A DNA stretch of 64,000 bases from contig JAAILG010001553.1 in the NCBI GenBank assembly GCA_012026655.1, positions 1 to 64,000 on the forward strand. The letters run 5' to 3'. The position numbers were made by a program, and so were the translations under genes. Position 1 is the stretch's first letter, and each line of letters begins with the position of its first letter. Origin of the DNA: Hydrolagus affinis. Taxonomy: Eukaryota. The notes under the pieces were generated by a model. That model made no database searches. It was given only the letters and a program-made list of their open reading frames with translations, and was not told the DNA's origin. This document shows, piece by piece, positions 5,686-40,021 of the stretch.

Positions 5686-8503
5686 GAAATAAGTGAGGAA
5701 GAAGAAATAAAATTAATGAATAAGAAGAAAATGATAGCAAAATGTTAAGGATGAGACATCACACAATAATGTATACTCCTGCATTCATTAAATCAATAAC
5801 AATTAGAAATGATTTTTTTTACATGCTTTTCACATGTAGTCTTTTTAAGAATTACTGTCCACATTGTCTGAATACATTGATATTTAAATAATGTGTAATC
5901 ATTGCATACTTTGCTCCCATGATTCATATACTGTACTTACAAATATAAATTTTTGCTTGTTTTTGTGACCAGTGGTTTTGATAGACAATGTATAGTAAAG
6001 AAAGCTGAAATGCATCTGGGAAATTGAATTGAACTAATTTAAAATAATTTTGGTCAGTATAGTTATGAAAAACAGAATAGTTAACATCCAACAATGCCTT
6101 CATTTGCAAATACATGACAGCTATAGAAAACCCAGACAATTGGAGGTAACATTGCAGGATGTCTTAAGTATTTGAAAATCACATATCCATTTTTAACTTC
6201 TCGTAGGTATTCTGTGTGCAAAATATTGAACCATTTGCTGACAGCAGGATGGAATAAGTGTCAATTCAGTTTAGTGTGTGATGTGACAAACAAAGGCATA
6301 ATATAATTAATGTATTAATGTGTATCAGGAAATAAAATTGGTTCAGTGGAAAGTTTTCAACACTGGAAAATGTTAACAACACAATCCACATTGTTCCAAG
6401 AATCCACATTGTGCTGGTTAGCACTAGGTACTTATGCCACATGAATGTGAAGATGGAGACTGGTGTCTGCACATTAGTATAACATCATTAGGTCACTTTA
6501 TTGTAATGTAATTCAATTCTAGATGTTAGAGAAAAACAATCTGGTAACATTCAGGATGATTGTCCAAAGCTACCAAGGATCAATAACAGTTCATGTGGAA
6601 AAGAGAAATCGAGTTCTTTCTCAATTCATCTTTCAAGTACAAGATAAATTGTTGACACTTTCCTGGGGAGATTTAAGAGAATGATTGTACAGGAACAGAT
6701 TATTTCATGGCCTGTAGAAGGAACACACTTGATGCACCAGTTTTTTTTTGCCTATTCTGGGTTATCCTGTTTCTTCTCAGAGAATGATAGCAGTTTAATT
6801 AGTACAGTACTGTAATAAGATTTTTGCAAATGTGGTATCTTTGCAATATTGCTGATTTGGCAGCTTTAAAACAAATATTATTAACAGAATCATGATGCTG
6901 CAGCTTCTTTTTAATCTTAGTCTAATATATGATTTATCACAATCAATACATTCTGTCTCCTGAATAATTCATCAGGTTCTACTGTTAAGCCTTCACTCAA
7001 GTTCTTTATTTTGTTCTAAAAATGCGTAAGTGAAATGTGTATAATAGTGTAGGGCCATGTAATGGGGCTAAACTCTCATAAGGTTTTGTTTGATAACATT
7101 ATGGTATATAGTTTGCCTGATAAACAACATTTTATTTTTGCAAAATATATTAGTGATATGTTCTTAAAGTTTGAAAAGTACATCTGGTCCAAAATGCTAA
7201 TTTTTCAGCAAGTGATTGAAGAACCTACCACAGAGCGAATGATAATAATATAATTTAAAATGTTGGTGCCATGTATATCTAAAAGAGTATAAAGTTTATA
7301 AAATGGGATTTAGAAAAGCATCAGAAATGAAAAAGCCATATTTAATAGTGCAGATCAAAAAAATGAAATGCCCTAAGAATAAATAAGCTGGTCAGGTAAA
7401 GTTCACAGCGTAGCTATTTATTCTCTTACAATGAACCCCTTAACTCAGTAATAATTGATGTGATCTCCTCTTTGGTTAAAGCTCATGAAAAATGCTTGAG
7501 TTGCCTCAACAAAATGCAAACTCTGACCTTTGTTCTATTTTCTGTTCTGAGCTAGGCAGTTGCATAAAGGAATATTGATGGTTTAAAATGATATTCAGAA
7601 TCTCATTGACTTGTCTTCATGGAATCCTAATATTAACCTTTTAAATCACAGAACATGGTACCAATACTTTCAGAAGCTGTATTAGAATGAAAAGAATTTT
7701 TACCTTACCTAAAGAAATAACTAGTGTAAATGTCACTGATGAGAGTCAGGTGAATTATGAACGCAGCTTAATCAAAGCTAGTTGTCTTTGAAGAAACACA
7801 CACTGAGCTTACACACACTGAACATTGATTTGGTTATGGTGTAAAGCACCCTCCATCACCTCACCCACACACATCAATTAAATATGATATGTTTTCAAAT
7901 TCATATTTATTCAGTAAATACGTCAGCACAATACATACTTTATAAGAAAATGATTCCAGATTCATTTTTGACAAGATAATTATCTCCTAGTTATCTTAAT
8001 ATTTGGAATAATTTCCTCCTATTAAACAGGGATGTGCCTTCTGACCTTCTGGCTACTTTGCAGAGTTTTTAAACAGAAAAGGAGAAGGAATTACTCACAT
8101 TTATAATATAGCACTCTTGGAAATACAATTCAGCGGCTCATTACTGGGTGTACGTCTCCATGTAATGGAACAGTAAGGCCCGCTCCACCCTACCTGACAA
8201 TAATGTGTCCTAACCTAAAGCTAAGAGCAGTGCTCTGACTGAAGTAGAGGGTTGCTTCCACTTCCTGTATTAACTAGTGGATTGAGCGAGATTTTAACTA
8301 GGCATTTATTAATGCCAAAATATTTCAAATTGATTGTCTCTGGCAAATTAAGCAAATTAAGCAGATTTTGTGAATTGAATTTTTGAAAAGGGCCAATTAA
8401 GAGTGCTTCACATAAATTGAGGACCACAATTAATTTGAAACTGTTTGTGAGGTCATATTTGTTCCTAAAACACTTGATAATTCTAAGCAAAATTTGATTT
8501 CAG

Positions 8504-8721
8504 AATTATAGCTTGTTCCATGAGCATGAAGCGGTATGTGGAGGCTAATATCTCTCAGAAGTCTCACACTACAATCAAATACTTCATGAAGATGTGGAGC
8601 AGTGTGAGTGAGACCCTCATCTTCATTTTCCTTGGTGTTTCTACCATTGGGGACAATCATGACTGGAGCTGGCCCTATGTATGTTTCACAATGATATTTT
8701 GCCTTGCCTGGAGAGCAGTAG
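8504..8721 (+). CDS. slc9a2: SLC9A2-like coding exon (equivalent to exon 4)
   Basis: tttcag|A...G|gtaatt; [44 protein letters not shown]...AWRAV. Confidence 0.95.
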
Positions 8722-8759
8722 GTAATTGGAATTTACTTCCTAACTATTTTAAAATATGT

Positions 8760-9242
8760 TAAAATGCTTTACAAGATTTACTGTAAAGTGTAGTGGCTGA
8801 ATATCCAAACATGGCAGCCAACTTGCAGACAGCAGTGTCCCGCAAACAGCCAAGAGGATGATCAATTTTATCGCACACTCTTGCTTCTGAGTAAGATGGT
8901 TGTGGTTTCAAGCTTGACATCAAGACTGCGCTCGTAGTCAAGGCTGACACTGGGAGAACGCTGCAGATGCCTTCCTTCAGATGAGACATCAAGCCAAAGT
9001 TTTGTTGCTTGTTTAGGTGGACTTGAAAGATTCCATAACAGTCTTTGAAAGGAGAAGGAATTTCTCCCAGTGCCTTGGTCAAACATTTCCCCCGAAAAAT
9101 TAGTCATTCATTTGTTGTGTTTCGATTGCCATGTTTCGCCCATGAAATACACAATCAATCTACTTTACAGAGTATCCTGTGAAGCGCTTTGAGGTGCCTC
9201 AATGACCCAATAAGGTGCTATATCAAAAGCAAGGATTATTAT
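8760..9242. mobile_element. SINE tail (minus, about 8760-8870) head-to-head with an older DeuSINE-type copy (plus, about 8890-9242)
   Basis: ttccttcagatgagacatcaagcc...gaaagattccat...tctcccagtg is Deu-domain-like; ends in gctatatcaaaagcaaggattatt. Confidence 0.65.
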
Positions 9243-9633
9243 AAATATTATGTCGTCACAGCCGAGACCTGTTATTACCTTACTTAACACTGTAAGATAA
9301 TACTGTATATTCGAAGCTGCAAATAGTGATCTTTCACTTCCTAAACTGTGGCACTGAAACAAGTCTTAGCATCCATTCCTCCCTGGCTGAAATACCCTAC
9401 TCAGTACACATCAGCAGTTGAACCTGTCCAGATCTTCTGTTTCTGTAAGGGTCACTTACTCACTGATTGTTCACTGAATTCTCATCATGTTAAATTTCAA
9501 TTTACAAAAAAAACATTGTAAACTGAGATTTAACAACAAAATTAACCCATTTTATTTATTCCATTTTTTTTTACCTGAGGTGTTTCAGTACATTTCTCTC
9601 ATCAGTGCTAAGTGAACAATGTTTCATTTCCAG

Positions 9634-9830
9634 GTGTCATTGTTCTGACATTTATTGTGAACAAATTCCGGGTGAACACAGTCACAAGGAAAGACCAGTT
9701 TATTATTGCCTATGGTGGATTAAGAGGGGCAATCTGTTTCTCATTAGTGTTCTTACTTCCCAACTTTCCGCGAAAAAAACTTTTCATCACTGCTACAATA
9801 GTGGTTATATTTTTTACAGTGTTTGTTCAG
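9634..9830 (+). CDS. slc9a2: SLC9A2-like coding exon (equivalent to exon 5)
   Basis: ttccag|GT...CAG|gtaagc; [46 protein letters not shown]. Confidence 0.95.
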
Positions 9831-11199
9831 GTAAGCAAGAATTTTTCTGATACCGTCTCTCTTTTATTTCAAAATCCAGTCCACTGTAGTATTTAAAACC
9901 GAAACCATTTTGCATTCATGAAAAACAACTGATTCATTAGAAACCTCGATACAGTGGAAGTCATAGCACAAATGTAAAGCATTGTCAAAGAAGGCACTGT
10001 GATTTTTTTTAACTGGATCAAACCAAGAATAGCTCTCCCTCTAATGTAAGCTCAACTATAAAAAGCTCCCACTTTAAAAATTAATGCTTAGGCGAGAAAG
10101 CTTGACACACAAATGTTTTTATATTCATTCTGATCACCAGGAAAGTATGCATGACATGAAATAAATCCTTAAGGAATTTTAGTTTGGAGCTTCAACTGCC
10201 ATAAAATAAACTAGTCTGTATATCACAAACAATTTGCCCAGTTAAACCAAATAAAAAGTGATGATTTGCAAGGATAATTACAGCAAAATTATAGGCACAC
10301 ATTTCCCATGATTTATTTTATAATTAATCACATGTAATGTGTGCTAATTAAAGTCAGATATCACATGCTTTATTTTCCCTGCTGACACATATAAAGTGCA
10401 TATGAAATTATCAAGTGAGATGGCAGCCCCAGGGCAGATTGCAAGATATGAAGAAAATCTGAAATATTAAAATGAATGAATTGTGAATTTTCACAGGTTT
10501 CTTTGATGAGCTTAAGTTAACAGGTGTAATAGTAAAAACAACTTAAGGTGGAATATGAAACAAACTACAGTAATAATACACAATCTTTTACGAGATATTT
10601 GATAAATATTTATTTAGATTGGTACAAATGCCATTCATATTTGAGTGAAAGCAAGTATTTTATTAAACATTCGGACTTGCAGACAATCAATATAATTTGC
10701 ACCTGAATTTTCTTATAATGGACTTGCATAACTAATATAGTTGTACTATGTATAAATGAACAAAACACATTTTATCAAATTATGATACCAATAAAGACAT
10801 TTAATGCATGATATTCAATCAAGCAAAGTGTTACGTCAAGGCCTACCTCCAATCATGGGCATTTAAACTGTGACAATCTATACACCAGAGAGGAATATAG
10901 GAGCTATCCCCTTTAAAGCAGCAAAACAAATACCTTTCTGAAAGCAGAATATAAATATATATCACTGAGTTGTAATAAAATACATTTGATTTTAATACAG
11001 TATCCATGCCTCCACTGGGATCAGCCCCCAAACGATGGACTACTTTCCATGCTAACATTTGCAATCTCCTAAATCAAAGATCAATGGTTACATTAATACA
11101 TCCTTACTCTTTCATCAGACCTTTAACTGGATCAGATATTGCATTCTGTAAATATAAATAGTTGCTGAGTATGGATTGCACTATTGCATTGGTAGGTGC

Positions 11200-11445
11200 A
11201 TTGAATAAATACACTTACCATTAAATTGATCATTTGCTCATATCGCTGAGGCACGTACATTTTACCAACAATCAGTGGGGACAAGATTAGGCTTTGCTGT
11301 GATACCCTTCACAGTCAAAAAGCCTTTGGCAGTAACTCTCAAGATTCATGCACGAAGAATGAGTGCTCAAGTGAAATACCCAAGAGCACCTTGTACCTGT
11401 GAATCTGCACAGGCATCGTCAGGAGAGGACTGGAAATAATTGAGG
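11200..11445 (+). mobile_element. Ancient SINE-like repeat fragment (related pieces near 4060-4170 and 56030-56180)
   Basis: Shared degenerate motifs such as ggattaggct..gctgtgat..cacagtc and cacgaagaatg; the family is not identified. Confidence 0.35.
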
Positions 11446-12052
11446 GCGGTGAAAAGAGATTTAAAAACTCAATACACTTTTATGTACAAATTGCTAGAGA
11501 TAAGACACACATACACAAACAACCCACTGGCACAGAGAAGCGGTTCAATAATTGGCTTGTTGCTGGTATACATTATACCCATCATTTTTCAATAATGTTG
11601 GCAATTTGGTAGAAATTCGTATTGATTTTCAAATGGGTGCAATTGGTCTAGAATGAACACATGGGTTATCTCATTCAATGGAAACTCAGTCAAAGATCAA
11701 TAATGAGTTTCGCACCAGCTTTGCTGCCAAAATGTTACTTTTGTAAGAACTGATGCGCAAACAGAGCTAAATTGAAAAAAACAGGTAGCCAGTTCATATG
11801 ATGCAAAATGAGATACAGAGCAGTAAAAACTATTCATTATTGTCATGTACACCTGAGGCACCAAAGGGTCACTGGTTCATTGATTCATCGGGTGCTGAGC
11901 CAGCTGTGTGAACTGCTTTGAGATATTCTCCTGGTGGGAAGTGAGATCAGATGAGCCTTCTTCAAACTAATCCTATAAATTGCAGTGTATTTGTATTATA
12001 CACAATTTACGTGTTTCATAAGCGTATTGCGTTCATTTATATTTTACTGCAG

Positions 12053-12142
12053 GGAATGACAATTAAACCACTCGTAGAATTACTGGAAGTTAAAAAAACA
12101 AGCAGAACCCCTCCAACTATCAGTGAGCAGATTCATATTCGG
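12053..12142 (+). CDS. slc9a2: SLC9A2-like coding exon (equivalent to exon 6)
   Basis: ctgcag|GGA...CGG|gtaagt; GMTIKPLVELLEVKKTSRTPPTISEQIHIR. Confidence 0.93.
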
Positions 12143-12665
12143 GTAAGTATGCACCACCTAACATCTTTGCAGTCTCTGCTTTGTGTTAGTGCACTGGCAG
12201 AGCTATAATGCTGTATTCAATTGCTGAGGATTCTTACATAATTCTGCCTGAATGTATTGGCAGCTCTGAAATGTTTGGGTAAATTGGGTCATGGAAACTT
12301 ATTTGCTGGCCAGTGACAACAACAACAACAAAATCACAATTATATCCTAGAATAGGATTGAAGTTTTTTTTCCCCCAAAAAAGACTACATGCTATGGTTC
12401 AGAGACCGATCTAACATCATAATGTCAATCATCTCTGAAATGGCTGAAGAAGAAACCATTGTCCAGAATATGTTTTTTTTGGGAGGCAAGGTTCTCAGAA
12501 CTAATCCTAGTTCTAATTCAACTAATCCTATTACTCCCCTGACTACTTTTCCCACTTTCAAAATGGATTCCGTGATTTGTTTCAGCATAAACTATGGTCT
12601 TTTACATAACTAAAAAGCTGGAAACCTCCCTCAATGTGGTACCATTGCTGCTTTGCTTTATTCAG

Positions 12666-12736
12666 TTCTTGGACCATTTGCTTGCTGGGATTGAAGACAT
12701 TTGTGGACACTGGGGCCAATATTACTGGAAAGACAA
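12666..12736 (+). CDS. slc9a2: SLC9A2-like coding exon (equivalent to exon 7), CHP-binding region
   Basis: attcag|TTC...AA|gtatga; FLDHLLAGIEDICGHWGQYYWKDK. Not in the ORF track; read by eye. Confidence 0.93.
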
Positions 12737-13313
12737 GTATGAAATTCATTTATTTTAGTAGATGGGTGTATGTATGAATGAGTGAGATGATATCATAATG
12801 AAGAAAATATTTTTATCTCAAATAATTATAAAATTATATAGGCTATTCAAGGTGGAACATTAGAATTATGAATTTCACATCAGGATTTCACATAATGAAA
12901 ATGCACCTGTACGTGTATCCTCAATCTGAATTTCAGTGGGTAGCTACACTAACTGTTGCTCTGAACACGTCTAGAATATTATGTATTTGCACTGATCCTG
13001 TCCGCGACTTAAAGTTTTGGTGGTTTAAGCATAAGATGTTATATTATGAGTGAGATAATATTTCTTTAATTCCAACTTATTAAATTGTTTTAAGCATTCA
13101 ATTGGATTGAGTGTTCACCTACAAATTACGCAGTCACTACACTTTACAGGAAATGCTGTAAAGTACTTTGAGACTTACTCCTGATGTGAAATACTATACC
13201 AGGTACAAGGCTAATTATTCATTTTATTATTATCACTGCAGATGGCACACAGAAGCTTTGATGATATCAGCTTGTGGAATCTCTTCTAAAAATGTACTTC
13301 AAATTTCTTACAG

Positions 13314-13478
13314 ATTTGAATATTTCAACAATAAATATTTAAATAAGATTCTCATCAGAGAGCAACACTTGTCCAAATCCAGTATTGTCGTCTTATATCA
13401 GAAACTAGAGAAAAAGCACGCCATTGAGTTAGCTGAGGCTGGACATCTGATAGGTGCACCATCCCTCGCATCTCTCCA
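13314..13478 (+). CDS. slc9a2: SLC9A2-like coding exon (equivalent to exon 8)
   Basis: ttacag|A...CA|gtgagt; FEYFNNKYLNKILIREQHLSKSSIVVLYQKLEKKHAIELAEAG. Confidence 0.92.
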
Positions 13479-14065
13479 GTGAGTGACCTAACTTTGCCTC
13501 GTTCCTCTTTGGATTTTCATTGGGAAACAGTTCCTCTACATGTTTCTGCGGTATTTGAAAGCATTATTTTTTCGGCAGCATTTAAAATTTCTCAGAGTTT
13601 CAAAATATTCCAGTCACCAAGAATTACTCTCCAATGCTCCGAACCAGTGTAGATACAACTGCTTTTACATCTCTCCTGCAGTGAGTTTACTATTGACTTA
13701 ATTTTCAGCACTTGTGCAGGGAACCATTCACAAATGACACAGTACCAGATGTGCAAACTGTCAGCTTTTAGCCCAATGTATACTATGTGTTGGTACAACC
13801 TTGTGGCTGTGATTCCTGGTTGATTAACGATAGAGGAAAACACCCAGCCAGATGAAAGTGTTATTGATCGTGAATATCACTAAAACGAAATGTAAATAGT
13901 CCAGATTTACAAAAAAAAGTCTATGTTATGTATAACGCATGGATGCATCACCTGTTAATCATCACTGAAAGAATTTCCAGTTAAATAATTGGTGTGATTT
14001 GTTGCATTTTAGCCTTTCCACAAGATGTGATAACTACTAACTTTTTTATTAATTCCTTGAAACAG

Positions 14066-14168
14066 TGACCAGCCATCTCCCACGGTTTCCCAAACTACAG
14101 TTCCTCCAGAACAGCTTGATAACATGCGGAAGCTGCTGATAAGGAATCTTTATCGAATAAGGCAAACG
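14066..14168 (+). CDS. slc9a2: SLC9A2-like coding exon (equivalent to exon 9)
   Basis: aaacag|T...ACG|gtatca; DQPSPTVSQTTVPPEQLDNMRKLLIRNLYRIRQT (cf. NHE2 IRELLSRNLYQIRQR); phases fit both neighbours. Confidence 0.88.
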
Positions 14169-14214
14169 GTATCAAAGTTGTTTCTGTCTATGATTTATAT
14201 CTATAATCTATAAG

Positions 14215-14648
14215 ATGTGTTGGGACACTGCTGTGCGCAATTGGCAATTCGCCCATAAATTGTAAATTTGTAAAGTCAATTCATGTTACAGTATATTCTG
14301 GTAAATGCCTTTCACGTCTAGAAGATGTGAAAAGCCCTATATCAAATGCAAGGATTATTATTATTATTTTAGACGCCTCAAAGCTTTCTAAACACCTCAA
14401 AGTGCTTCACAGAATATACTGTAAAGTGAAATAACTGTATATTTGTGGGTGAAATGCGGCAGCCGATTGAGCACAGCAGTGTCCCACAAACAGTCGTGAA
14501 TTGAAATGACCAATTTATTATTTTTTTGAGGGATTATTATTAGGCATGTGGAGTATAGAAACTTGCACGAGGTTTCGCCCTGCCTGGATTCGAACATAGG
14601 TCTCACACTTGTAAGGCGAGTGGACTAACCACTGAGCTACAGGACTCC
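14215..14648. mobile_element. Tail-to-tail SINE pair: plus-strand 3' half (14215-14368) and minus-strand near full copy (14371-14648)
   Basis: gggacactgctgtgcgcaattggc versus its reverse complement gccgattgagcacagcagtgtccc; tRNA head at 14580-14648. Confidence 0.85.
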
Positions 14649-15632
14649 ACAGGACTGCTTGTATGTGAAGCGAATAGCAAACAAGGTCAAACAACTGGAA
14701 AGTGCTGCAGTCTGCTAGACCTGAGCGATTGTCTCAATGATATAGTTTTTAGCCAAAGGCAGTGAATATCTAGAACCGATTTTTTTTTACACTATAATGC
14801 TCAGTAGGTTGCACTGGCACCTTTGCTCCAAAGAATATGATATAAGTCAAAACAAGAGCTTGATGTGACATTCCAATGCTGTATTGATTGAGCGCTGCAT
14901 TGTTGATTGCATACTAAACTGAGTTTTATCTGGATTTTATGGTGGTTCAGATGAATGTTTAAAGATCTGGTGATATTAATTTTAAAGAGCAGTAAATTCT
15001 CCTGTCTGATATTCCTTCTTTCATTCTTAATTCTCAAAAACTGTTCATTTACCTAATTTTTTTTGTGGGACATTGTTAACAGATTAGCTGACAAATTTGT
15101 CTTCATAACAGTCACTGCACTTCAGAGAAACTCATTGTTTAAAGCAATTTGAACGTTTTAATAATAAGACGCTATATCAGATTTTGCAAGTGATCCTCAC
15201 TGTAACAGTTCCTTTAAGAGTTCAAAATGCTCAAATATTTACAGTTCAAAATATAAAGTACAGTTTAGATTGTTTGTGAATTGATCTTAAATCACATAAG
15301 TTTTCCACATTAGATGTTTATCTTTCTATATTGGTAACAGTTGACACGTTTATCCAGTTTAAACCTTAAATGATTTATATACAATTTCCTGTCCATCCAT
15401 CAACTTGTCTACTTCACCTAACAGGAGTACTTGTGCTATATACAAACGCACAGCAGACCTGCCAAGCAACATTCTCTTCAGCTTAATTTAATTTGTTAAC
15501 TGGACTTATTAACGAACTTATTTTGTTGCTTTTCACAGTTTCCTAATTTTATATGAGATTTGTGAACTTTCCTGCAAATCTCACTCCTAACATTGCCCTG
15601 CCATTATGGTATGTTATGCTACTTTTGGAATA

Positions 15633-15812
15633 TGATAAACTCCTTATAACTCAACACTGAATTAATTTGTCACTACCACTTAAGTCATCATGCTGTCAAT
15701 ATTCCAGCTACATTTATTTCCATGCATGTACCTATGCTTAAGTCGCTACACTGGATAACTCATTATCGAACCCCTTTGCCATGGAATCACAAGTTATGAG
15801 GAGTTTACTGTA
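15633..15812. mobile_element. Degenerate Tc1/mariner (Tigger-type) MITE
   Basis: Left aaactccttataac versus right gttatgaggagtttactgTA (imperfect inverted termini, CAGTA-type end). Confidence 0.4.
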
Positions 15813-16204
15813 TTTCTTTTTATCAGTGTATATAAAAGCACACTTCCTGCCCTGAGTCCCTTAAATTCCCACCAAAGCCCACTCCAGTGTTGCGAAGAAC
15901 TATAATAATAACCATCACAGCCCCTTGTTTTCAGATTTTCAGTCTGAGAATAATTCTGCCCTTTTAAAATAAAATCAATGGGGAGGTGAAGGAAAAAAAG
16001 TACCTTTTATTTCCTTGCATTTATGTATCCTTCACATGTGTGCACCAATGTTGCTTCTTGCAGATAGTCTCTGAAATAGGGCCTTTCATTGCTATCCCTG
16101 TCATTGCAGGTAATTACCATCAACTGATGTGTTCAAGTGTGATTATCTTAAATGCAATGTCATCAACGCAGTGACATTTTGTTGTACTGATCCTATTTGA
16201 ACAG

Positions 16205-16324
16205 ACACAGTCCTACAGCAGACACACCCTGCCTCATGGGAAAAATACAAGCCAAGCTAAAGAGATTTTTCTGCGCCGTCAAGAGAGTCTCCTGAAGGAC
16301 GATTCCTCCCTGAGCACAATAAAG
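16205..16324 (+). CDS. slc9a2: SLC9A2-like coding exon (equivalent to exon 10)
   Basis: gaacag|ACA...AAG|gtacat; TQSYSRHTLPHGKNTSQAKEIFLRRQESLLKDDSSLSTIK (cf. NHE2 TLSYNRHSL...QAKEILIRR). Confidence 0.88.
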
Positions 16325-16901
16325 GTACATTCAGTGTTCAATCTCATCTGATAGATCTAAAAATAACAACAACTTGATATATATAAATTATATATACTGT
16401 ATATATATATATATACACATATATACACATTTTTCAAAGTCACATTTGCAAATGATACAATTTTATTTTTAAAGATTAACTCACTTTTTAAATCACTTTG
16501 TAAACACTTTTGCGTTCCATTTCCTCTTCCTGTTTGTTTGAGAACAACTTCTTGATGGAGAACAAACAATATCTTTTAAGTAACTAATTTTCTAAATACA
16601 GCTCAGTTGTCTATATTACATGAATGATGATGTTGTAATAAGAAAGCCAAGTGGGAATAAAGAAAGGTATGCTCTTATTCTGTATTCTCTGTAATCACAC
16701 TCTTCCTCTGCATTGCTGGTCGAGATATAATGCAATACAGAAATGTTTGGCCTTGTTAGACTCTTCAAATTTAAAATGCTGCCGTCATCATGGATTGATT
16801 CACACTTGCTGTTTGATGCTAGGAGGCATAGAACACAGGCTTGAAAAAAATACCTAAGAATAGTTCTGTATCCTTATTGTTTCCCTTCTTCCTGCCCACA
16901 G

Positions 16902-16965
16902 AGGAGATCACTTACAGGGTTGGTTGAGTCTCAAAAGAAGGGTAAACTGGCTCGATCCCTTACAG
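16902..16965 (+). CDS. slc9a2: SLC9A2-like probable coding exon (equivalent to exon 11)
   Basis: Strong pyrimidine tract + cacag|AGG...G|gtacca; RRSLTGLVESQKKGKLARSLT. Supplies the phase 0 to phase 1 change needed for the last exon, but protein similarity is weak. Confidence 0.65.
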
Positions 16966-18207
16966 GTACCAATTTAGCTTGTTTGCTTTGAATAACATTT
17001 ATCTACATTGATTGTCTGGACTCAGATACAAAAACTTGAGATTTACACACAATTGCGCAGACACCCACACACCCACACACAGTACCAAGATTCCTATTAA
17101 AAAAAACCTTGCATTGAATTGCTTTCTTAGTCACAACAGGAGGCTCCATCAGGACCATTATCGTTCTACTGTTTCTAATAAAGGAGTTTGTATTTTTCTG
17201 TTCGTGCAATTTTAAATATTATTAACTATCAAAATGTAAATTGCTATTATAGATACGAGAATGTGCATATAAAAAGTGATGAATTTCAGATTTTTGGCAT
17301 GAAGCTAGCCTTACAAGACGAGTGAACGTTTCAAAATGAGTCGATTTCTGTCCAAGGGTCATGTGCTTAATATTAGTATAAATTAAATTAAAATCACATC
17401 AAGCAATCATCTAAGATGCAGAATGCAGCTAACTGTATCCAATGGAGGAATCATGCACCTCAGACAACAGAAGCTCATTTAGATTGGATCTGAGTCATTG
17501 TGACAGCAGTTTAAACCCCCAGTCTGCTGATTCCTTTGTAAATTCTGGCAGTAGTGACCCAAAGCATTGAGTTTTCTATATATAAATCCCGGGCATTTTG
17601 GGGCCTATGTCACATGACTCGCGCTGTCTTTTCTTCATATACAAAGCTTACTGCACAGATTGGGGATAACTAAAATGAAGCTTTACTTGAAATGCATCTG
17701 TAATTGAGAGTGTGCTGTGCTCAAATAATAATCTCTGCCCCTGGAGAATAGGGTTCGGATTTAGCCTTGGGAAGAAAAAGAGATGAAGGTCATTTTTCAG
17801 GAATGGAGTGAAGTCAGAATTAAATGCAATTCCGGGCACAAAACAAATCTCATGGATTCTTAAATTAAAAGGTAATAAGTAAACCCTGACTCTATCAGAT
17901 AACAGTAATGGAACGTTTTTCATATTTTGCTCCCAGTGTCAACGTAAAACGCTTCTAAAGATCACGGAAAGCATTGCAGAAACGACTAGCTCTATAGTCC
18001 TCCTCAGTACACTTCAACCCCAATCTAGGTGGAGCATTCCAATCTGGAAAAATAATGCAGAATGAAGGCGCTTTGCAACAGCATTCACAAAATATTCATC
18101 AAGATTGAATCGGATGTGTCTTCTGCTAACTAAACATCGCAAGATCAATTGGGATAGTTTATTAGCCCATGACAAATAGACCCATTTGTTTTCACTTTAG
18201 GTATTGT

Positions 18208-18588
18208 AATAATTATCCTTGGATTTGATATAACAGCTTATCACGTCTTTGAGATGTCTCAAAGCGCATCGCAGAATACATTGTAAAGTGGGGTGAGTAT
18301 ATTATGTGGGCGAAACATGGCAGCCAGTTTGGCACAGCAGTGTCCAACAAACAGTTGTCAACTGAGCGACCAAATTATTATTATTATTATTTATTTATTT
18401 TTAAGGGATTATTACTCCCGGAAAAGCAACTCGCCAAGTGGCTAACAACCAGGTTCCTATTTACTGCGAGGTAAACAGAGGTGTAGGGAGTAAGGAAATT
18501 TGCCTAAGGTTTTGCCCACTCTGGGACTGAAACTCAGGTCCTCTTGCTTGCAAGGCGAGTGTTTTTACCCATACACTACAAGACTTCA
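18208..18588 (-). mobile_element. tRNA SINE, long form with CORE-like segment
   Basis: Contains the extra ~80-nt block (ggttcctatttactgcgaggtaaacagagg) that the short copies lack. Confidence 0.85.
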
Positions 18589-18684
18589 CCATATAGTGGG
18601 TAAGAATTGAGAGCTATGCCACTTACAATGAAACCTAATAATCTTTCATTGTGTTAAGATTTCCTTTGCATTTTTTTTCTGCAG

Positions 18685-19040
18685 TTGGAGGATATGGAGG
18701 CAGTAATAATGCCCAGAAGAAATCTACACAATTACCCAAGTCTCAGTCAGCCACAGCACATCAGCAACTTAGCAGCACAGAATGGATCAACGAGGAGGAA
18801 ACAGAAAATGCACAAAGTCCTGATGCAATTGATGGGAACCAGATACCAGAGAGGCTTGTTGATAATAGTGCAAAAGACAATAAGGTTGGACCCAAATTAA
18901 AGTTGAGATTTGCCTCTCAAGATACAGAAGGAAATGAATTGGCACCGAATGGAAATAGTAATGGGCAGAGAACATCAAGTATACCCCGAGTAGTGCACCA
19001 ATTCTCTGAACACCTTAGTGATCGGGAGCACACTGAATAA
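18685..19040 (+). CDS. slc9a2: SLC9A2-like terminal coding exon with stop TAA
   Basis: ttttttttctgcag|TT; open to TAA at 19038-19040; hydrophilic tail containing EWINEEE (cf. NHE2 EWKNEVD). Confidence 0.75.
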
Positions 19041-26650: not shown

Positions 26651-27924
26651 TGTATTCATGCTTTAGCTTCCCAGGAGAGTTTCTCTCTCAGATCCTCTTT
26701 AAAGTTCAATGCCATTTGATATTTGTCATTTTGTAAAAAAACAAGAACCTTTTTTTTTGAATGGGTGATTCCTGGTGATGCCGTTGAAGGTAATAGTTTT
26801 TTAAACAGAGCAATGACCAAGGTGAAATGAACATGAGTAGAAACAGAAATTAAACCAAGACTATTGCAATAAACTTACTTCAACTGATATTGTCTTTATA
26901 GTATTTACACCTTTCAAGAAAACAAAAAAAATTAACACCACTCTCAAGTTAATTAAAATTTATTTTAATTGTTGGTTATTCATAGAAGATCACTGATGGT
27001 GAGATTCTCTTGTTAAACTGCCAGGTTTGACAACCTTCAGTGCTGTACCCCTGTGCAGCTTAGCTCGACCGATTGAAGGAACTTTGAATAAATAGCAACC
27101 CACCACACCGCAAGTTTGAACAACAACCATAAAATTCCATCTGTATAATGCCTTTCACTTCGAGAGGACGTCCCAAGGTCTAAACTTGTCAGAGGTTCTG
27201 AGAACTGTGTTTAACACAAGTCTGCCCTGTTAAGAAAGAAAGTTGTACACAGGAACTGAAAGCTGACCTTAAATTCTTTTAGGAGCTGAGCCTGGAGGGT
27301 GGACTAAATAAACTAGTATAACGGCTTTTATAACTCAGAAACAGCTGAAACAGCTGCATCAGTCACTGGGGGATCTGTCTTGGCTCGATGCTGACTAGTG
27401 GAGAGACCAGGGTTCCACCAATGATTCCTGACATGGTTTAAGCTTTTGTATTTGTTCCCAATGCAGCAGTTTATCTTTACTCAGTCCAGATGACTTGAAT
27501 TCTCTATGAGAAGTGAAAGAATTTAAAATTCTAGCTGTATATTTGAGCCTTGCACTGGAACAACAACAACAACAACAACAACATTACATTTGTAAAAATT
27601 TGTGCTTAAATAAAATTCCTCCACACAATGTGAATCCATAGTTCATTTCTGTCCGGTTACTTTTACAGGAGGAATACTGTACAATACTGTGTGAGACTCC
27701 TTCACTGCAATATATGTAAAATAGATGTACCTAGTGAAGCAAAAGGTTAATCATTGAAATCTGAAGTCATCCAAAATGTTTGTCAAGTAACTGATAATGA
27801 CCCAATTCCAATACGATGTAAAATAATAAATTAAAATCCCTGCATCTGATATAGCATCTTTCATGTCAGCAGGACATCTCTAAACTATAGTAACTGTGTA
27901 GTGTACCTAGTGTCTAGTCACCAA

Positions 27925-28108
27925 ACCTATGGAACTCTTTTCCTCAATCCCTCTGCGATGCTCCCTCTTTACCTACTGGTCATCAAATTCCATCTGAACA
28001 CTTTTCTTTTTGACTGTGGCTACTGTCAATTCCCTATCTTCCCCAGCTCGGTATCAAACTCCACCATCATTCACCACTGTGACACGCCGCTGCTCATAAA
28101 GTTGTTGT
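27925..28108 (+). mobile_element. Old L2 3' fragment
   Basis: ctatggaactcttttcctcaatccct...tcaaattccatctgaacacttttctttttgac, ending in ataaagttgttg. Confidence 0.55.
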
Positions 28109-29280
28109 ATTTTGTAGGAGAAAGTTTAGTAAAATAGAATAACTGTCTTTGGACCATTCAAGGATTTGTGAAAAAAAAAGTCTGTATGGTTTTCCACATG
28201 GAAAGGCACAAGCTGATTCATTGCAGTAAGGATCCCCCCTCCGGAGTGGGGGTCATTTGCAATATATTATGGAATGACTAAATAGAAAAGTGCACAGATT
28301 GCGAATGCACTCCATTAAGTTAGTGTATTTTTACTTTAAAAACTTCTCAATACAAATATGTTTAATACAATTTTGCGTTTACACATCCATTTTCCCACAG
28401 AAATTGTTGGAAAATTTATACCACATGATTTATTTATATTTGCTGATGTTTGGGAGCCTGTCATCTTTTACGTGTGAATCACCAAATGAATCAAACCCCT
28501 TGGGTTTCATAATTCAAACATTATGTAGTCAACTCTCCTCAGGCTCTGTACAAATAGTGACAACACTATTCCATATGAACAGCTGTTACTGTGCTTTAAA
28601 GCCTTATCAGAATTATGCGTTCAATGGTGTGTGATATACAAAGATTTCAATGATTAACCTTTTGCTTCACTAGGTAGCTAGTTGCCATCAAACAGAGACT
28701 GCTTTTGTAGCTTTTAAACAGCAGCTAAAATATGAAGGCGATGGATCATCATACAGTATTTGAATTTTTAAAATGTTGATGTATCATTTATCACATATGA
28801 AATTCTAACATTTAACTTTTAATTTTAGTTTTCTTCCCATTGTACCTGTTTTCATCTCAACTTTGTGAAAAATAATGATCTGACAAGGTGAGTGTCTAAT
28901 TTGGACAAGTTAAATTGCCAAGAATTTGTTGTAAAACTATTTAAAATAATTGAAATAGACTTACATCAACGGTACTTGCGAATCTCCCCCCCACTCTCCC
29001 CTAAGACCTATACAATGTAATTTACATTTATAGTAGTACCTTTCACATTGGGAGGACATCTCAAGGAAGAGCAGTTGAGAAGTACTAAAAATTTGCATAG
29101 ATGAAAAGAAGAACAGCAAAATTACATTTGTATAGTGTCTTTCATGTCGGGAGGACGTCCCAAGACGCTGGAGAAGAATAGAATAACAAGAGGATTATTA
29201 CTGAAACAGTTGATATATTTCTCTTTCAAAATAGCTCATCAGGTTACTATTGCTACATTATAATAATAACAACTCCTTAT

Positions 29281-29688
29281 TAGTAATAATTATCCTTGCA
29301 TTTGGTATAGTGCCTTATCAAGTTGTTCATAGAATATACTGTAAAGTGGAGTGACTGTGTATTTTGTGGGCAAAATGCAGCAGCCAATTGCACACAACAG
29401 TGTTCCACACCCAGTGGTGGATTGAGTGACCAAAATTTTGAGGGATTATTACACCAGAAAGTGATCTGCCAATTGTTTGACAACTGGGTTCCTCTTTACT
29501 GCTGCCACAACAACAACTTACATTTATAAAGCGCCCTCCACACTGGACAGCGCCTCAGAGCGCTTACTGCTAGGTAAACAGACATGTGAAATATGAAAAC
29601 TTGACTAAGGCTTTTCTCTGCCTGGTAATCAAACCCAGGTCCTTTTGCTTGTGTGGCGGACGCACTAACCACTAAAATATGGGACTCC
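29281..29688 (-). mobile_element. tRNA SINE, long form, interrupted by a 60-bp L2 tail insertion
   Basis: SINE consensus with an insert at 29504-29563 flanked by duplicated TTACTGCT. Confidence 0.85.
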
Positions 29689-30327
29689 ACACTACAAATT
29701 GTTATTCTCCCACCAAAGTTACACCGTAGTGTCAATTCTAGCGGGAAGAATACATATATTTATGGCATTTGTTTGGAGAGATGTTTTCTCTGTGACATAA
29801 CACTTTAAGGTGGCAGAGCTGATTCTGAACAGTCTTTGAGGCAAGGACTTTATCCCAGATTTTCTGAAAGGGAGTGGATATTGAAGTACAACAAATACAT
29901 GGGTCCAATGTTGAGATTTGCTTCAATAAGTGAACACACAAAAGAAACAACAACAATGTCCTCTCAGCCTGAAAAATGCTATCTAATTGCAATCTGTTGT
30001 TGTGCTGAAATATAATTTGTCAAACAGAAGACTTTAATTGAATCACATAAAATTCATTGTATGTTTCTAATACAAACATTGCCAACTTCTTCGCAGCTTC
30101 TATTATGGGACCTTTGGCAGCTTCTTAGGAACTTAACCCAGAATCATAAAGAAATTTCCAACCTGTTTTCTCCATAGAAACCAAGTCAGCAAAATTTAAA
30201 CGACATTGTATTAAATTAATTCTTGTGACATCAGGCACATTTTTTGCATCAAGGTCATCTATTTTGATATATGTTGTACCGCGCCCTTGTGAAACTTACA
30301 CCGACATGAAACAGAGTTCATCCACGT

Positions 30328-30337
30328 CCTAAAATAG
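30328..30337 (+). promoter_or_regulatory. Possible MEF2-like site upstream of the TMEM182-like ATG
   Basis: CCTAAAATAG about 80 nt before the ATG resembles the MEF2 motif; TMEM182 is a muscle-expressed gene. Motif match only. Confidence 0.25.
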
Positions 30338-30418
30338 CAATCTGATTCTGACAAACATTCATTGCAGACCCAGCTTCCAGCCAAACACTTTATCCCGGTT
30401 AGAAACTTTTGCTGGACC

Positions 30419-30586
30419 ATGAAAGTTAGTATTATTGCCTTTATAGCGGGGCTTATTGGAGCCATTGGGGTGCTTCTATTTCTGATAGCATTTGGGACAG
30501 ATTACTGGCTGCTAGCAACTGAGAACTGTGAAGCATATGATCATGGATCTGAAAGTAAAACGGTCAGGCCTATAGCTCCCACAAAG
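30419..30586 (+). CDS. tmem182: TMEM182-like exon 1 (ATG)
   Basis: gaccATGa Kozak context; [37 protein letters not shown]...PTK; donor AAG|gtgagt. Confidence 0.92.
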
Positions 30587-31457
30587 GTGAGTGCCCGTGT
30601 TTTGTCTGATTTGAACTAGTCAAATTGCCAAGCAGAACCGGAGAGTGTGTCATAACAAGGTATTACAATTCTGTCAGTAATACTGGAGGCGATTCTTGAT
30701 GTGATTTCTCTTTTCAAAACTGGCATATGTGTTGAAAGATGTGTGTATTAGAAACATAAGATGAACTTTTATGTGATTCTCTTAAACAGTACTGAAGTCT
30801 TCTGTTTGACAAATGATATTCAGCGCAGGTTAAGTGGGACCCAAATGATCAAATTCCTGTAGCTTTTGAAACTTTTATTGATTTAATTTTTATTGTTGAA
30901 ATGTTAGTACTGTATTTCGTTCATATCTGGCACAGAGAAAATCATAGAGAGCGGAGTAATTTGTTACGTATTCTAGTAAACATGCAGTGAGGTATTTTCT
31001 CAATCAGAGTTAAGCCTCTACCTTGTGAAGTGTTATTCAACAGCTCAACAATGCCAACCCAATAGCAGCCACAGAGAGATTTGGGTTAGTTTCAGCTTGA
31101 AGCATTGAACTGGAAATGGGAGGAGAGAGGGGTACAGACAGTTGGTCAGTGTGTGTGGGTATGTGTGTATGATTGTATACGTATGTGTGGAGGAAACAAA
31201 AAGTTTTCATTCGGCCACATGCATATCGTTAATATTTTCAGTTAATTTGCTCAAACATGTATCAAATAGAAGATACCAATGCACATTAATGAGGTGCATC
31301 CATTTCTGAAAGCTGTCAAGCTATTGGCAAGTTGTATATGAACTATGCGAGGAGGGTAATATTTAAACTTCAAATTGCCACTGGATATTGCCAGTGTGCG
31401 AGTGAACATATTGCCATATTTTTATTGTACCTGTATTTTTATTTGTCACCACAAATT

Positions 31458-31720
31458 GGGGGGCACTCGATAGTCCGAAGGTTCGACAGTCTGAAGGTTC
31501 GATAGTCCGAATGTTCGATAGTCTGAACACACAAATTTCCTATACCCGGTGTGTTTACCGTGGTTACCGCTCGAAAGTCTGAAAATAAGGTTTGTTAATC
31601 CGAACATTTCCATCCTTAGGTTAGGGTTAGGGTTAGGGTTAGGGGAAGCTTCGGACTAACGAACTTTTGGACTAATGAACCTTTCGGACTAACGAACCTT
31701 CGGACTATCGAGCTGTAACT
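31458..31720. mobile_element. Foldback/MITE-like element with 16-bp subterminal repeats and internal (TTAGGG)4
   Basis: Four copies of TCGATAGTCCGAAGGT on the left and four inverted copies on the right; TTAGGG x4 at 31621-31644. Confidence 0.7.
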
Positions 31721-33056
31721 GACAAATCAGTGCGAGTTGGACAGAAATTTTCTGCAGAATATATAGGGGCTTGGTTAGTGGGAACCATCACAATGGCTCC
31801 GATCACTTCATTTCCTTTCAAAGTTCTCAGCACTAGAACTTTGAATGGAGATGCTAGATAAGCAGCCTTGCGGCCTGCTGGTTTGTTTGAGTTCATACTA
31901 CACTATACTGCACAATAGTTCAAGCACTCTGGGACGCTACCTTGTGTGAGGGGCACTATATAAATGCAAATTGTTGTTGTTGCAGTTTTTAACTCAACTT
32001 ACAACTTTCTCTCAATTCTCTCTCTATCAGTACGACCACATTTGTACGGTTAAAGCTTATTCCATCGTACAGTGTCTTTGAAGCACCTCCTTTCCCATCT
32101 TCCCTACACCCTTCAACAATAACAACAACAGATTGCATTTATATAGCATTTTTCACGCTGAGAGGACATTGTTGTTGTTTCTCTGCGTGTTCACTTATTG
32201 AAGCAAATCTCAGCATTGGACTCGTGTATTTGTTGCACTGCGATATCTACTCCCTCTCAGAAAATCTGGGATAAAATCCTTGCCTCAAAGATGGTTCAGA
32301 ATCAACTATGTCACTTTAAAGTTTCCCTGATAAGTACTGGGATGACAGAATAGAATACTCGGATGAATCACCAGCAGAGAGATTATAATCACACTTTGGC
32401 AAACACATCTCTTCTGCACTGATAAGGAATGACAGTGGCAGTGTTTTATCAAAATCCTGACTGAAGGTGGTGATAGGAAGCCACAATATAAAAAGGCACG
32501 GATTATAATAGCTAAACGTTCCTGTTGTAAGATTTTTGAGTTGTGGTGTCATCACCAATGCACAGACAATGTATTCGTCATATCTGAGGATGGATGCATA
32601 AGCCCATGGGTTTATATAGAACAGAATAATAACTGGGAAGTATTAACCAGCAGAGGGTTGATTTTACAGATCATTTAGACAAAGTAGGAACAAGCTGGCA
32701 GCTTAGGTCATTGAACAACAGGGATCAAAGTTTCACTTTCCTCTTTGAGAAGGTTCAGTGTGTCATATACCCACTTTATCTGTCTGCATTTACTATGGAA
32801 CACACTCCGCACTGTACGTTGAAGAATCCAAGTGCTGAGAGATATGGATACAGGTTCAGTATTACAGCACTAATTCAATGTTAAACTCGTCAGGTCAACC
32901 AGACTATTCACACTCTGCCAGTCAGTGGTAGTAAATCCACTGGTGAAATTCAATTCAGTTCACAAAACTCAATTTGTTTCAATAAAAATCAATTTGCAGC
33001 TTATTTACTGAATTGAGTGCATTGCTTATAAGATACTGTATGTCATTTGTGTGCAG

Positions 33057-33171
33057 GTTTCTAGTGAAACACACAATAAATCTGACATCACCTTTCATCA
33101 TGAGGGATTCTTTCGGCGGTGCTCGTTCAATGAAGACATTTCCCATGACAGCATCTGGAACTTCTGGTTTA
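33057..33171 (+). CDS. tmem182: TMEM182-like exon 2
   Basis: gtgcag|GTT...A|gtaagt; VSSETHNKSDITFHHEGFFRRCSFNEDISHDSIWNFWF. Confidence 0.92.
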
Positions 33172-33794
33172 GTAAGTTATGTAACTACAATCATTTAACT
33201 TTCCCTCATTCATGTGTACCTTAGTCACACCACTTTACAATAATATTTGTTAAAGCGCTTTGAGACATCTTGATAATATGATAAGGTGCTATATCAAATG
33301 CAAGTGTTATTATATCCCACATCTGCTTAAGCCACTTTATGTCCCCAAAAGGTTTTGTCTGAAATCCTGGAATAGCAATGGTCAAGAATTATTCAGCTCT
33401 TAAATACCCTCACGGCAGAAAAAGGTCACCACAACAAACTACAGTGCAGCATACTGAGAGCCTAGTAATCACTGCTGGAGGTGGAATGTGGTGGAAGCAG
33501 TCAAGGAAGTAACATATTATCACACACATTTCAAGACATTATTGCAGAGACATATTCTATGCAAAAAAAAACTCTGTGGATCTTTGCAAGTAAAATGTGA
33601 AGGGACAGCTGCACCGCATTCAGGAAATTCCTATCCAGCCAATCCAAATCATTATTTAAAATATATAAAACCGCCTGCGGTACAGAGATCTCCCATTTTG
33701 TCTCACTGATTATGTCTTTCATAGTTTTATTACTGTGAAAATGTCGCTTTATGCAGTTAGAAACCTACAACCCACATTTCCATTAGGGGCCTTT

Positions 33795-33985
33795 ACAACA
33801 ACAACAACTGGCATTTACATGGCATCTTTAACATAGGGTAGTATCTCAGAATGGTTAACAGTAACAGAGCCTGACACTGAGCCAGTGAGAAGGGAAGGTG
33901 ATTGTAGGCATGGTCAAAGAGGAAGGTCTTCAGGTGTGATCTGAGGATTGGGCAAGGAGGGGACAAGATGGAGGGATTGAAAGGA
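33795..33985 (-). mobile_element. L2 3' fragment, partly duplicated in inverted orientation at 34409-34489
   Basis: (AAC)n tail and LRSHLKTFLFD-type coding remnant; 81/81 identity to the inverted copy. Confidence 0.85.
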
Positions 33986-34631
33986 ATTTAACCATGCTTT
34001 TTTCTGTTTATTTCGCTTTGGACACAGGTTCAGTCAACCCATTTAATGAGACATTATTAAAACACATGTTCTATTAAATGTTTCACCATTAATTCTTTCC
34101 AAGGCTTAAATAGCTGACTTTTATAAAAAAAACATTTTAATTCTTCCTCCTTAGTCCAAATTATTGGGCAAAATTATTATATACCATTGAAGTTGTTCAC
34201 TTTATTGCTGGTGGATTGCATTTACTAATGTTAATACAATGTATTCAAGGGCATCATTAGTTTTTGACAGGAACATGTACATGTATTTTATTTTTTTAAA
34301 ACATAAACTTTAAAGAAGCACAAATTTCTTATTTGCCTTTGCATTTTGTGTAATGATGACTTTACTTCGAAATGTAAATGAAATTTACCAAAAATATTCC
34401 ATTGTTCACCATCTTGTCCCCTCCTTGCCCAATCCTCAGATCACACCTGAAGACCTTCCTCTTTGACCATGCCTACAATCACCTTCCCTACCTCCAATTA
34501 TACAATTATACAATTAAAATGTTTGAATTGAATCAAGTACTGATTCAGTGGTATGTGTGCTATAGTTATAGCTTTACTTTGTTCTCTCCGAGAATTTGAC
34601 TAATTTGCTATTATCATTTTTTTTTGCGCAG

Positions 34632-34724
34632 CAAGCCAGGCCCCATCAAAGAACTGTGATCGTGGCTATCTCTTCCCTTTGCCGATTGCACTGGGGCCCC
34701 ATCCTTCCCACGACAACACGGCTG
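34632..34724 (+). CDS. tmem182: TMEM182-like exon 3
   Basis: gcgcag|CA...G|gtatgt; SQAPSKNCDRGYLFPLPIALGPHPSHDNTA (cf. human NQPPSKNCTHAYLSPYP). Confidence 0.92.
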
Positions 34725-34870
34725 GTATGTTTTGTGAACCATAATTAGTCTTCAACTCGGGTTGCAGTTTGATTCTGTACAATTATCTGAGATCTGCGTT
34801 CTCTTCGTTATGATAGCAACGCTTCTCACCAGACAGTTTGACACCTTTTGCATTCTTTCCAATTACACAG

Positions 34871-35008
34871 TGTACCGTGGCTTTTGGACAGCGTTCATAA
34901 TATTAGCTGTGACTGCTGCTGTTGTGGGAGGATTCCTGTTAGTTTGTGCAGTGCCATTTGTGAGCGCCAAGCTGTACAAAGTAGGAGGTGGATTTCTTCT
35001 GGCTGCTG
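34871..35008 (+). CDS. tmem182: TMEM182-like exon 4
   Basis: acacag|TG...G|gtaagt; VYRGFWTAFIILAVTAAVVGGFLLVCAVPFVSAKLYKVGGGFLLAA. Confidence 0.94.
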
Positions 35009-35640
35009 GTAAGTTGTTGATCATATACATAAGAACCAATACATATCAGGTCCGGTGTCTCCAATAGCTATTCGCATAAAATATAAGCTGTTGTAGAGCC
35101 ATACAAACCTAGAAGAGTCAAACCTTGGTCTGCGTTGCTAGTTAATCTCAACTGCAGTGTATTGGAAGAGTTTCTACTGACTTAATTAACCACTGCAAAC
35201 TGTTAAGGAATCTTTGAATATTGACCAACATGTCGAGTTCTACACTTTTCTCCAATAGGGTGAAAAAGTGTCAATCCAATGTAACGGGAGAAGCATTGTA
35301 TTACATTGCATCATAAATGAAAGATACTCCCTGATCTTAATAGCTTAACAACATTCTTGAAGCAGTATTGTAAAACCTGAGATTTGCTTTAATGTTATGA
35401 CTAGAATGCATATACAAGTGGAACCAGACAATAGCAGATGGAATTCAAGTTCAGAAAACTGAATTCTACTGCCCTGAAACACAATTAAAAGGTTATTTCA
35501 GGGGGAAATCTCAAATTTGGAAGAAATGTATGCATTTTTCAGTCTGCATAATTCTAGCGGAAAATTAGAAGTCTTTTTTAATCGAGGAGATTATAGTTTT
35601 CTCTCATTTCTATGTCCCTAATTCTGGTAATAGTATAAAC

Positions 35641-39240: not shown

Positions 39241-39794
39241 ATTTCATTACAGATTCAATAACAGCTTTGATCATTATGAACTATTATCAAATATTGCATT
39301 TTCCAACTGATGTTTGTTTCAATGAATTGCTGAACAAAAGCCAAATGTGAGGATGCAGGTGTGGAAAAAATACACAGTGTTCCACTTACTGCCCTTCTAA
39401 TCCTAAATTCCTATGCGTACTACACTTCAAATGTCAATTGAGAACAACTATTTAATCAGGGTTGAAAATGCTTCAAGTATGCATCTCCTTCCAAACTAAG
39501 GATATCGGTGGTACTATTTGCTGGCAGTTCCCTGAAGATGTTAGATGCAATCATTATAACAGAGGTGCAAGATGGATGCAAGCCGTAACAAATGGTATCA
39601 TAAAGAATTCGACTGAACGCCTTATTATGTTTGCTATTACTTTAAGAAATGTTTATTTCAAAAACTAATTTGTATATACAGTATTTCACGTATGTATAAA
39701 CCATTACCAGTGGTGGGTGGGTGAGTGGAAGGATTACTACAGTAGGGTATGGTTTTATATAATTTTTTTTTAAAAAAAATCTCTTTCTTTGCAG

Positions 39795-40021
39795 GAACTT
39801 TATTTTCCATTCTGATTTTTCTCTTTGTCATGTGGAAGGAGTTTGCTGCAGATTTGGAAAAATACATCTTGTTGGACAGAAGTGGCAGCTGTAAGGATGT
39901 ATTAATGTATGTACAGTATGGCTGGTCTTTCATGTTTGCTGCAGCTGGGATTCCTCTGGTTTTACTTTCTGGTCTCTTATTTTATGTGATTGGCCGCACC
40001 ATCGAAGCACATAACAAATAA
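39795..40021 (+). CDS. tmem182: TMEM182-like exon 5 (stop TAA)
   Basis: ttgcag|GA; TLFSILIFLFVMWKEFAADLEKYILL...VQYGWSFMFAAAGIPLVLLSGLLFYVIGRTIEAHNK*. Confidence 0.94.

Follow-up and report, generated by a model that had tools for sequence, protein, structure and literature searches.

How did 278 bases directly upstream of a TMEM182-like gene come to mirror two separate pieces of that gene's first intron, and does the arrangement have a role today? The sequence lies in a 64,000-base stretch of Hydrolagus affinis DNA, which is called the window here. A preliminary description had read the locus as a multi-step templated insertion made of two nested inverted duplications, and had suggested either an invertible on/off allele or a duplication of enhancer motifs into the promoter. 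We consider it reasonably probable that 29802-30079 copies both ends of a 1.58 kb intron-1 block in inverted orientation, likely through one old germline template-switching event, and is likely functionless today. The parts of the arrangement are as follows.

29763-29800, plus strand: C, a tentative candidate third piece, which matches 30721-30759 in direct orientation, a segment across the inner end of B'
29802-30003, plus strand: A, the outer upstream arm, an inverted copy of 32122-32322, also found in runs X1 and X3
30001-30003: the A/B junction, a 3-base overlap, with two of the three bases matching on the B' side
30001-30079, plus strand: B, the inner upstream arm, which repeats 30739-30827 in inverted orientation and is 10 bases shorter than B'
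30739-30827, plus strand: B', the intronic partner of B and the inner end of the putative donor block
30828-32121: Y, the 1294 bases between B' and A', which have no upstream counterpart
32122-32322, plus strand: A', the intronic partner of A, placed by alignment

The gene that surrounds these parts was delimited by protein mapping and by RNA reads. Five exons were placed between 30419 and 40021 with the Callorhinchus milii protein annotated as transmembrane protein 182, which is 95% identical to the last exon; shark and ray proteins named TMEM182-like are 71-84% identical to that exon. TMEM182 has a known role in muscle, which may not apply here, as the gene groups with the "TMEM182-like" proteins; it may be a paralogue of mammalian TMEM182 that was lost in mammals. 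The homologue search returned 91 proteins with an E value of 1e-10 or better among 429 candidates. The 91 listed homologues come from cartilaginous fish, ray-finned fish, coelacanth, amphibians, reptiles, and birds, with no mammalian entry among them.

30080-30418, plus strand: probable proximal promoter and 5' untranslated part, the promoter status being putative
30419-30586, plus strand: coding part of TMEM182-like exon 1, 56 codons, with a GT donor at 30587 and 33 spliced reads
33057-33170 (right end approximate), plus strand: exon 2, from spliced reads and protein mapping
near 34637-34723, 34870-35009, and 39791-40021: exons 3-5

RNA reads from a related organism (run X13, of which ~27% was read, with 87 reads placed on the window) cover 30270-30587 on the expected strand. 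The 33 of them that splice exon 1 to exon 2 fix intron 1 at 30587-33056. The reads begin in the bin 30270-30326, which therefore puts the probable transcription start downstream of B. Over 29700-30269, no RNA reads were found in this ~27% of the run, a depth at which rare upstream transcripts could be missed. The normal transcript would include B' and A' and would contain neither A nor B. Further upstream, on the same strand, are exons of a sodium/hydrogen exchanger (Pfam PF00999) at 3031-19040, and no sign of a gene between the exchanger and the TMEM182-like gene was seen among open reading frames of at least 90 residues. Fused exchanger and TMEM182-like gene models occur in two ray-finned fish records, and the neighborhood is therefore old.

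The self-comparison of the window that the preliminary description had proposed returned both inverted pairs at the coordinates it had given. Aligned to the reverse complement of 32122-32322, A has 181 matches, 20 mismatches, and 1 gap column, which agrees with the ~90% identity claimed for this pair. B, aligned to the reverse complement of 30739-30827, has 71 matches, 7 mismatches, and 12 gap columns (79% identity overall, 91% outside gaps), and it directly adjoins A, again as described. Divergence is equal in the two arms (A 20/201, B 7/78, Fisher p 1.0). Along the DNA, the arms are nested (A B ... B' ... A'), and 1294 bases separate B' from A'. Past the arms, homology has no statistical support at the two outer ends (p 0.78 and 0.74). 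No clear microhomology was seen at the two outer junctions and 2-3 bases were seen at A/B, with the caveat that 10% drift blurs the junctions. Piece C reached a targeted p of 0.003, as one of 16 tests and post hoc, and a p of 0.12 in a wider search. A search of Rfam over 27500-34700 gave 0 matches at E 0.1. Inversion between staggered breaks leaves interleaved duplications that abut at both breakpoints. That origin was rejected on arm order, which is nested here with 1294 bases between B' and A'.

An obvious concern is that the pattern could be an assembly artifact, or could consist of dispersed repeats inserted independently. The assembly is fragmented (245,464 contigs), and the first 48 bases of A' are indeed a common tail. 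Searches of the 1.11 Gb assembly nevertheless returned 2 matches for A and 2 for B, and a 23-base pattern with 1 mismatch permitted gave 2 genome matches, where a SINE-like repeat taken from the window as a control gave 3924 candidates. When A' was the query, 19 further genome matches appeared, all inside its first 58 bases. The 48-base tail is retroelement-like, of a kind that we take to be L2/SINE, and matches the end of a reverse-transcriptase-like remnant at 25083; its simple repeat continues past the copied part. All of B and A outside this tail are thus two-copy in the genome, which bears out the earlier statement that the copied DNA is mostly unique and argues against high-copy repeats, one of the two explanations by which the preliminary description could have failed. 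The first 303 bases of Y are single-copy.

A foldback or miniature transposon with terminal inverted repeats was also tried and was rejected, as there are only two copies and no target-site duplication was seen. Two further repeats were mapped in Y:

31466-31712: a small foldback element whose arms consist of 16-base repeats, with four telomere-type hexamers in a row at its center
31922-31985: a retroelement-like tail

The foldback element has very high depth in all four runs compared and is thus a high-copy repeat. To the left of the arms, 29010-29700 is a pile of nested repeat tails, with one reverse-oriented SINE-like element that ends ~100 bases left of A.

The second concern, misassembly, was addressed with sequencing runs from other organisms. 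Part of the window is present in 12 of 16 listed runs, none with more than 47% of its words, and five of the 16 were compared, with run X1 representing organism A and run X3 representing organism B. These two related organisms, 1.3-1.7% diverged from the window, carry the same junctions in their contigs. In X3, one contig over 29684-30542 crosses all three upstream junctions with 11 substitutions and has an 11-base deletion inside B, additional to the 10 bases that B lacks relative to B'. A second X3 contig (31959-32672) spans A', so that both A arms are seen to be colinear with their flanks. In X1, one contig over 29838-31483 crosses the A/B junction, exon 1, and B' with 28 substitutions. The X1 contigs break at a 36-base core common to A and A', which has a depth of 119 against ~61 alongside, equivalent to two copies, and X1 therefore cannot orient A against A'. 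Runs X2 and X9 are near the window's sequence and thin over A and B, and they give evidence neither way. With arms 10% apart and junctions contained in contigs from independent runs of two other organisms, there is next to no chance that an artifact or independently inserted repeats explain the locus.

The shared junctions in X1 and X3 therefore indicate that the structure is real and that it predates the split of these organisms. The arms differ at 27/279 positions, a divergence 5.7 times that from X1 and 7.5 times that from X3. No relative without the insert was found; the well-covered X1 and X3 both carry it. Extant holocephalan families arose ~150 million years ago, according to the available text of PMC11521621, which makes the other chimaera families natural outgroups.

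The order of the arms points to how the structure arose. A followed by B matches the reverse complement of 30739-32322 in order: read backwards from 32322, intron 1 presents A', then 1294 bases, then B'. The upstream sequence therefore corresponds to one inverted copy of a 1.58 kb block that lacks its 1.29 kb middle. Both templates are otherwise unique, they abut in one insert, and they show the same divergence. The templated insertion proposed earlier thus stands as the best reading, given the equal divergence, the abutting junction, and the evidence against repeats and misassembly; its two separate duplications are better seen as one inverted copy without the middle.

As a mechanism, a DNA end under extension would have left its template at 29801 and primed on the opposite strand near 32322, where 201 bases would have been copied. 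A jump of 1.29 kb along the same strand, at the 2-3 base overlap, would have been followed by the copying of 89 bases and a return to the forward strand at 30080. Such synthesis would be of the MMBIR or polymerase-theta type, and the reverse reading order on the other strand would be equivalent. The allele would then have been fixed, and its arms would since have drifted ~10% apart. In the two human germline sets described in the available part of PMC8421209, 33/103 and 26/99 templated insertions of at least 25 bases drew on multiple templates, and 138/155 and 135/148 insertion junctions had microhomology.

The same final sequence could have been reached in two steps, by inverted duplication of the whole 1.58 kb block and a later microhomology deletion of the 1.29 kb middle from the upstream copy, in which case either copy could be the original. 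Arm order and divergence would be as in the single-event reading, and the 2-3 base overlap suits a deletion equally well. This route requires two fixed events instead of one, however, no remnant of the first 303 bases of the middle was found elsewhere, and the short form is already present in each of X1 and X3. We regard it as rather unlikely.

An RNA route is far harder to reconcile with the data. Here, an antisense transcript ending in the tail of A' would have been reverse-transcribed by LINE machinery and inserted beside an earlier copy, B. The right end of A does fall inside the simple-repeat end of the retroelement-like tail, where such copying would begin. Retrocopies are not normally inserted 2 kb from their source, as this one would have been, and the route leaves B, its equal age, and the colinear order unexplained. 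No target-site duplication was seen in the alignment at the outer ends of the arms, and no splice signals were found on the minus strand at the A/B junction, all of which makes this origin very remote. A variant with a spliced antisense retrocopy was rejected, because B' has no acceptor AG ahead of it and the minus strand offers only a weak donor.

Which side is the copy was approached through CpG sites. All five aligned CpG sites are intact in A'/B' and none is intact in A/B (two-sided p 0.06); four of the changed sites read TG or CA and one reads CC, which largely matches the earlier remark that CpGs of A' appear as TG/CA in A. This asymmetry by itself is weak evidence, and the site at 29900 is still C in run X1. 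Taken with two positions in the tail, whose ancestral state was read from other tails in the window, all polarizable positions are altered in A/B (7:0, p 0.016). Two of the seven changes are recent, judged by X1 and X3, which leaves 5:0 (p 0.06). With moderate confidence, we take the upstream arms to be the copy.

We also considered whether the accidental copy could have been retained for bringing regulatory sequence from the intron to a position 200-500 bases ahead of the transcription start. It adjoins the probable promoter, is fixed in three lineages, and has one NKX-like hexamer common to A and A'. Against this, the muscle-type E-box, MEF2, CArG, and MCAT motifs are absent from A, A', B, and B'; B is 10 bases short of B', with another 11 missing in X3. 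Between A and X1, 5/202 positions differ, in line with 28/1646 for the whole X1 contig, and there is therefore no sign of constraint. A few changes, namely the 11-base deletion in B in X3 and substitutions that X1 and X3 carry in A and B, suggest neutral decay. From the DNA itself, a regulatory role thus appears improbable, and the enhancer duplication that had been put forward finds no support in the simple motif scan or in a B that has lost 11 bases in X3.

The most striking of the earlier proposals was that recombination between A and A' or between B and B' flips the promoter and exon 1 and so creates an invertible on/off allele. The nested geometry permits such a flip. In bacterial invertons, a promoter lies between short, near-perfect inverted repeats and is flipped by a site-specific invertase. 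The likeness is that a promoter is enclosed by inverted repeats; unlike in invertons, the arms here have no conserved recombination core, no invertase gene was noticed in the window, and no inverted form was seen. The longest exact match between the arms is 26 bases for A (chance mean 32, p 0.76) and 20 bases for B, and the 36-base A/A' run in X1 is also within chance (p 0.27). No gene-conversion tract was found between the arms, in which the longest runs are not above chance, and 10% divergence speaks against ongoing exchange.

Recombination over short matches does occur: at the human alpha-globin locus, repeats 5 kb apart recombined over matches of <50 bases, as recounted in the accessible text of PMC2583991, so rare flips could take place here, and in X1 the 36-base identical core sits where contigs break and orientation across A is unreadable. 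The same text gives a 20-fold drop in recombination in mammalian (mouse) cells when the uninterrupted match is shortened from 232 to 134 bases. Long, near-identical arms, with a match above ~130-200 bases, were not what we found, and 26 and 20 bases are well under this range. Repeats at recurrent human inversions measure 1.6-24 kb in the portion of PMC3961182 (Aguado et al. 2014) available to us. Over 29700-31400, no joint was observed in four runs, whose contigs drop rare variants, and no joint linking the arms was present among the 15 of 736 joints examined; X3 is colinear over both A arms. A flip would also detach exon 1 from exon 2 and yield a null allele, no enzyme or site that might control it is apparent, B appears to be decaying, and the RNA reads begin downstream of B. 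Rare inverted molecules could escape the contigs. On the short exact matches, the missing core, the lack of a joint in four runs, and the colinear X3, the switch is extremely remote.

The single-event copy that we favor belongs to a class of event already known, of which it is a further example and not new biology. It most resembles the complex germline MMBIR templated insertions (MMB-TI) described in the available sections of Osia et al. 2021 (PMC8421209), in which inserts of at least 25 bases also derive from nearby templates, with several templates per insert, inverted copying, short junction microhomology, and inheritance or fixation without gross rearrangement. Unlike those, the present event is old (10% diverged) and is reconstructed from the arms; both main pieces lie colinearly on one strand, and the outer junctions are without clear microhomology. 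Cancer local n-jumps and templated-insertion bridges, as presented in the accessible part of Li et al. 2020 (PMC7025897), share local copy-and-paste, inverted junctions, and origin in a single event, but are somatic and mostly far larger, whereas the present one is germline and 278 bases long. The recurrent human inversions covered in the same portion of PMC3961182 likewise have part of a gene between inverted repeats; there, repeats of 1.6-24 kb segregate in both orientations, whereas here the arms are 80-200 bases long and 90% identical, with one orientation seen. In a search of the literature on TMEM182 and inverted duplication, we found no published inverted duplication of this gene. On the reading given here, the locus is a clean fossil of multi-template germline copying in a cartilaginous fish, which makes it a useful example and a marker for chimaera phylogeny. 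It would be very surprising to find a vertebrate promoter under a controlled DNA flip, and the evidence runs against one.

How ordinary such a copy is in this genome was judged against 140 stretches of 10 kb from large contigs (1.4 Mb, with 2000 N), a non-random sample. Local pairs were defined as at least 30 bases long and 50-5000 bases apart. There were 1268 pairs including those in the window, and 67 came through a word-count filter, 61 of them outside the window; 26 of these 61 were dropped for having an arm that matches another locus, which left 35. Among the 35 control pairs, 14 are inverted and 21 direct, and 33 are less than 2 kb apart. Local two-copy pairs thus occur about once per 40 kb in control DNA, and the same filter finds two events in the window, A+B and the pair 28893/30603, where 1.6 would be expected. 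A chimera of two abutting pieces does not occur among the 35, and of the 14 inverted pairs only 2 are longer than 200 bases; two compound-looking control cases (L016, L131) were among the pairs dropped as repeats. Local copies are common here, and A+B is longer and more complex than most, and uncommon.

Three extra local copies lie within 27.7-34.5 kb, with none elsewhere in the window through the filter:

27728-27762 and 28642-28676: a perfect inverted pair of 35 bases, two-copy in the genome
28885-28922: a direct copy of the exon-1 donor region, from 30584-30632, from which it differs at 4 of 38 bases and by an 11-base gap
33891-33971 and 34409-34489: a perfect inverted pair of 81 bases; the fit of X1, X3, and X9 contigs ends at 34409 or 34398

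X1 contig ends reach 30 bases into the 35-base pair on three sides, and these breaks therefore mark it as common to organism A. The donor-region copy scores 49 against 22 ± 3 and lies ~1.4 kb upstream of the probable start; its divergence resembles that of A/B, and it may belong to the same event. Upstream of 28885, there is no similarity to a decayed second exon 1 (p 0.68), and between this copy and piece C the sequence is unlike that of the donor gap (p 0.95 and 0.66). For the 81-base pair, the copy at 33891, inside a LINE-like remnant (33795-33989), is the likely donor of 34409-34489, which is either a private allele or an assembly error. A short tandem repeat follows the latter copy at ~34495-34515.

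Three extra events in 10 kb correspond to a Poisson p of 0.002-0.010, and two, if the 81-base copy is an assembly error and is left out, to 0.03-0.07; none of the 140 control stretches has three pairs. The local cluster is a weak hint of a template-switching hotspot, and the locus would gain weight if the four-copy cluster proved to be a hotspot tied to a transcription start, or if the arms served an upstream transcript in skipping exon 1. The nested arms have predicted duplexes of -301 and -86 kcal/mol. One could imagine that the 5' end of the gene recurrently template-switches intron-1 pieces upstream, the donor at 28885-28922 included, and that an upstream transcript would use this donor as the arms loop out exon 1, an accident-born RNA switch that would remove the first membrane segment; we rate this combination as highly improbable. 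Among the controls, long near-perfect inverted pairs were also observed in L136:1-6772 and L065:6528-10000 (2871 bases at 99.6%, 789 at 97%, and 284 at 100%), and these are either recent duplications or assembly errors.
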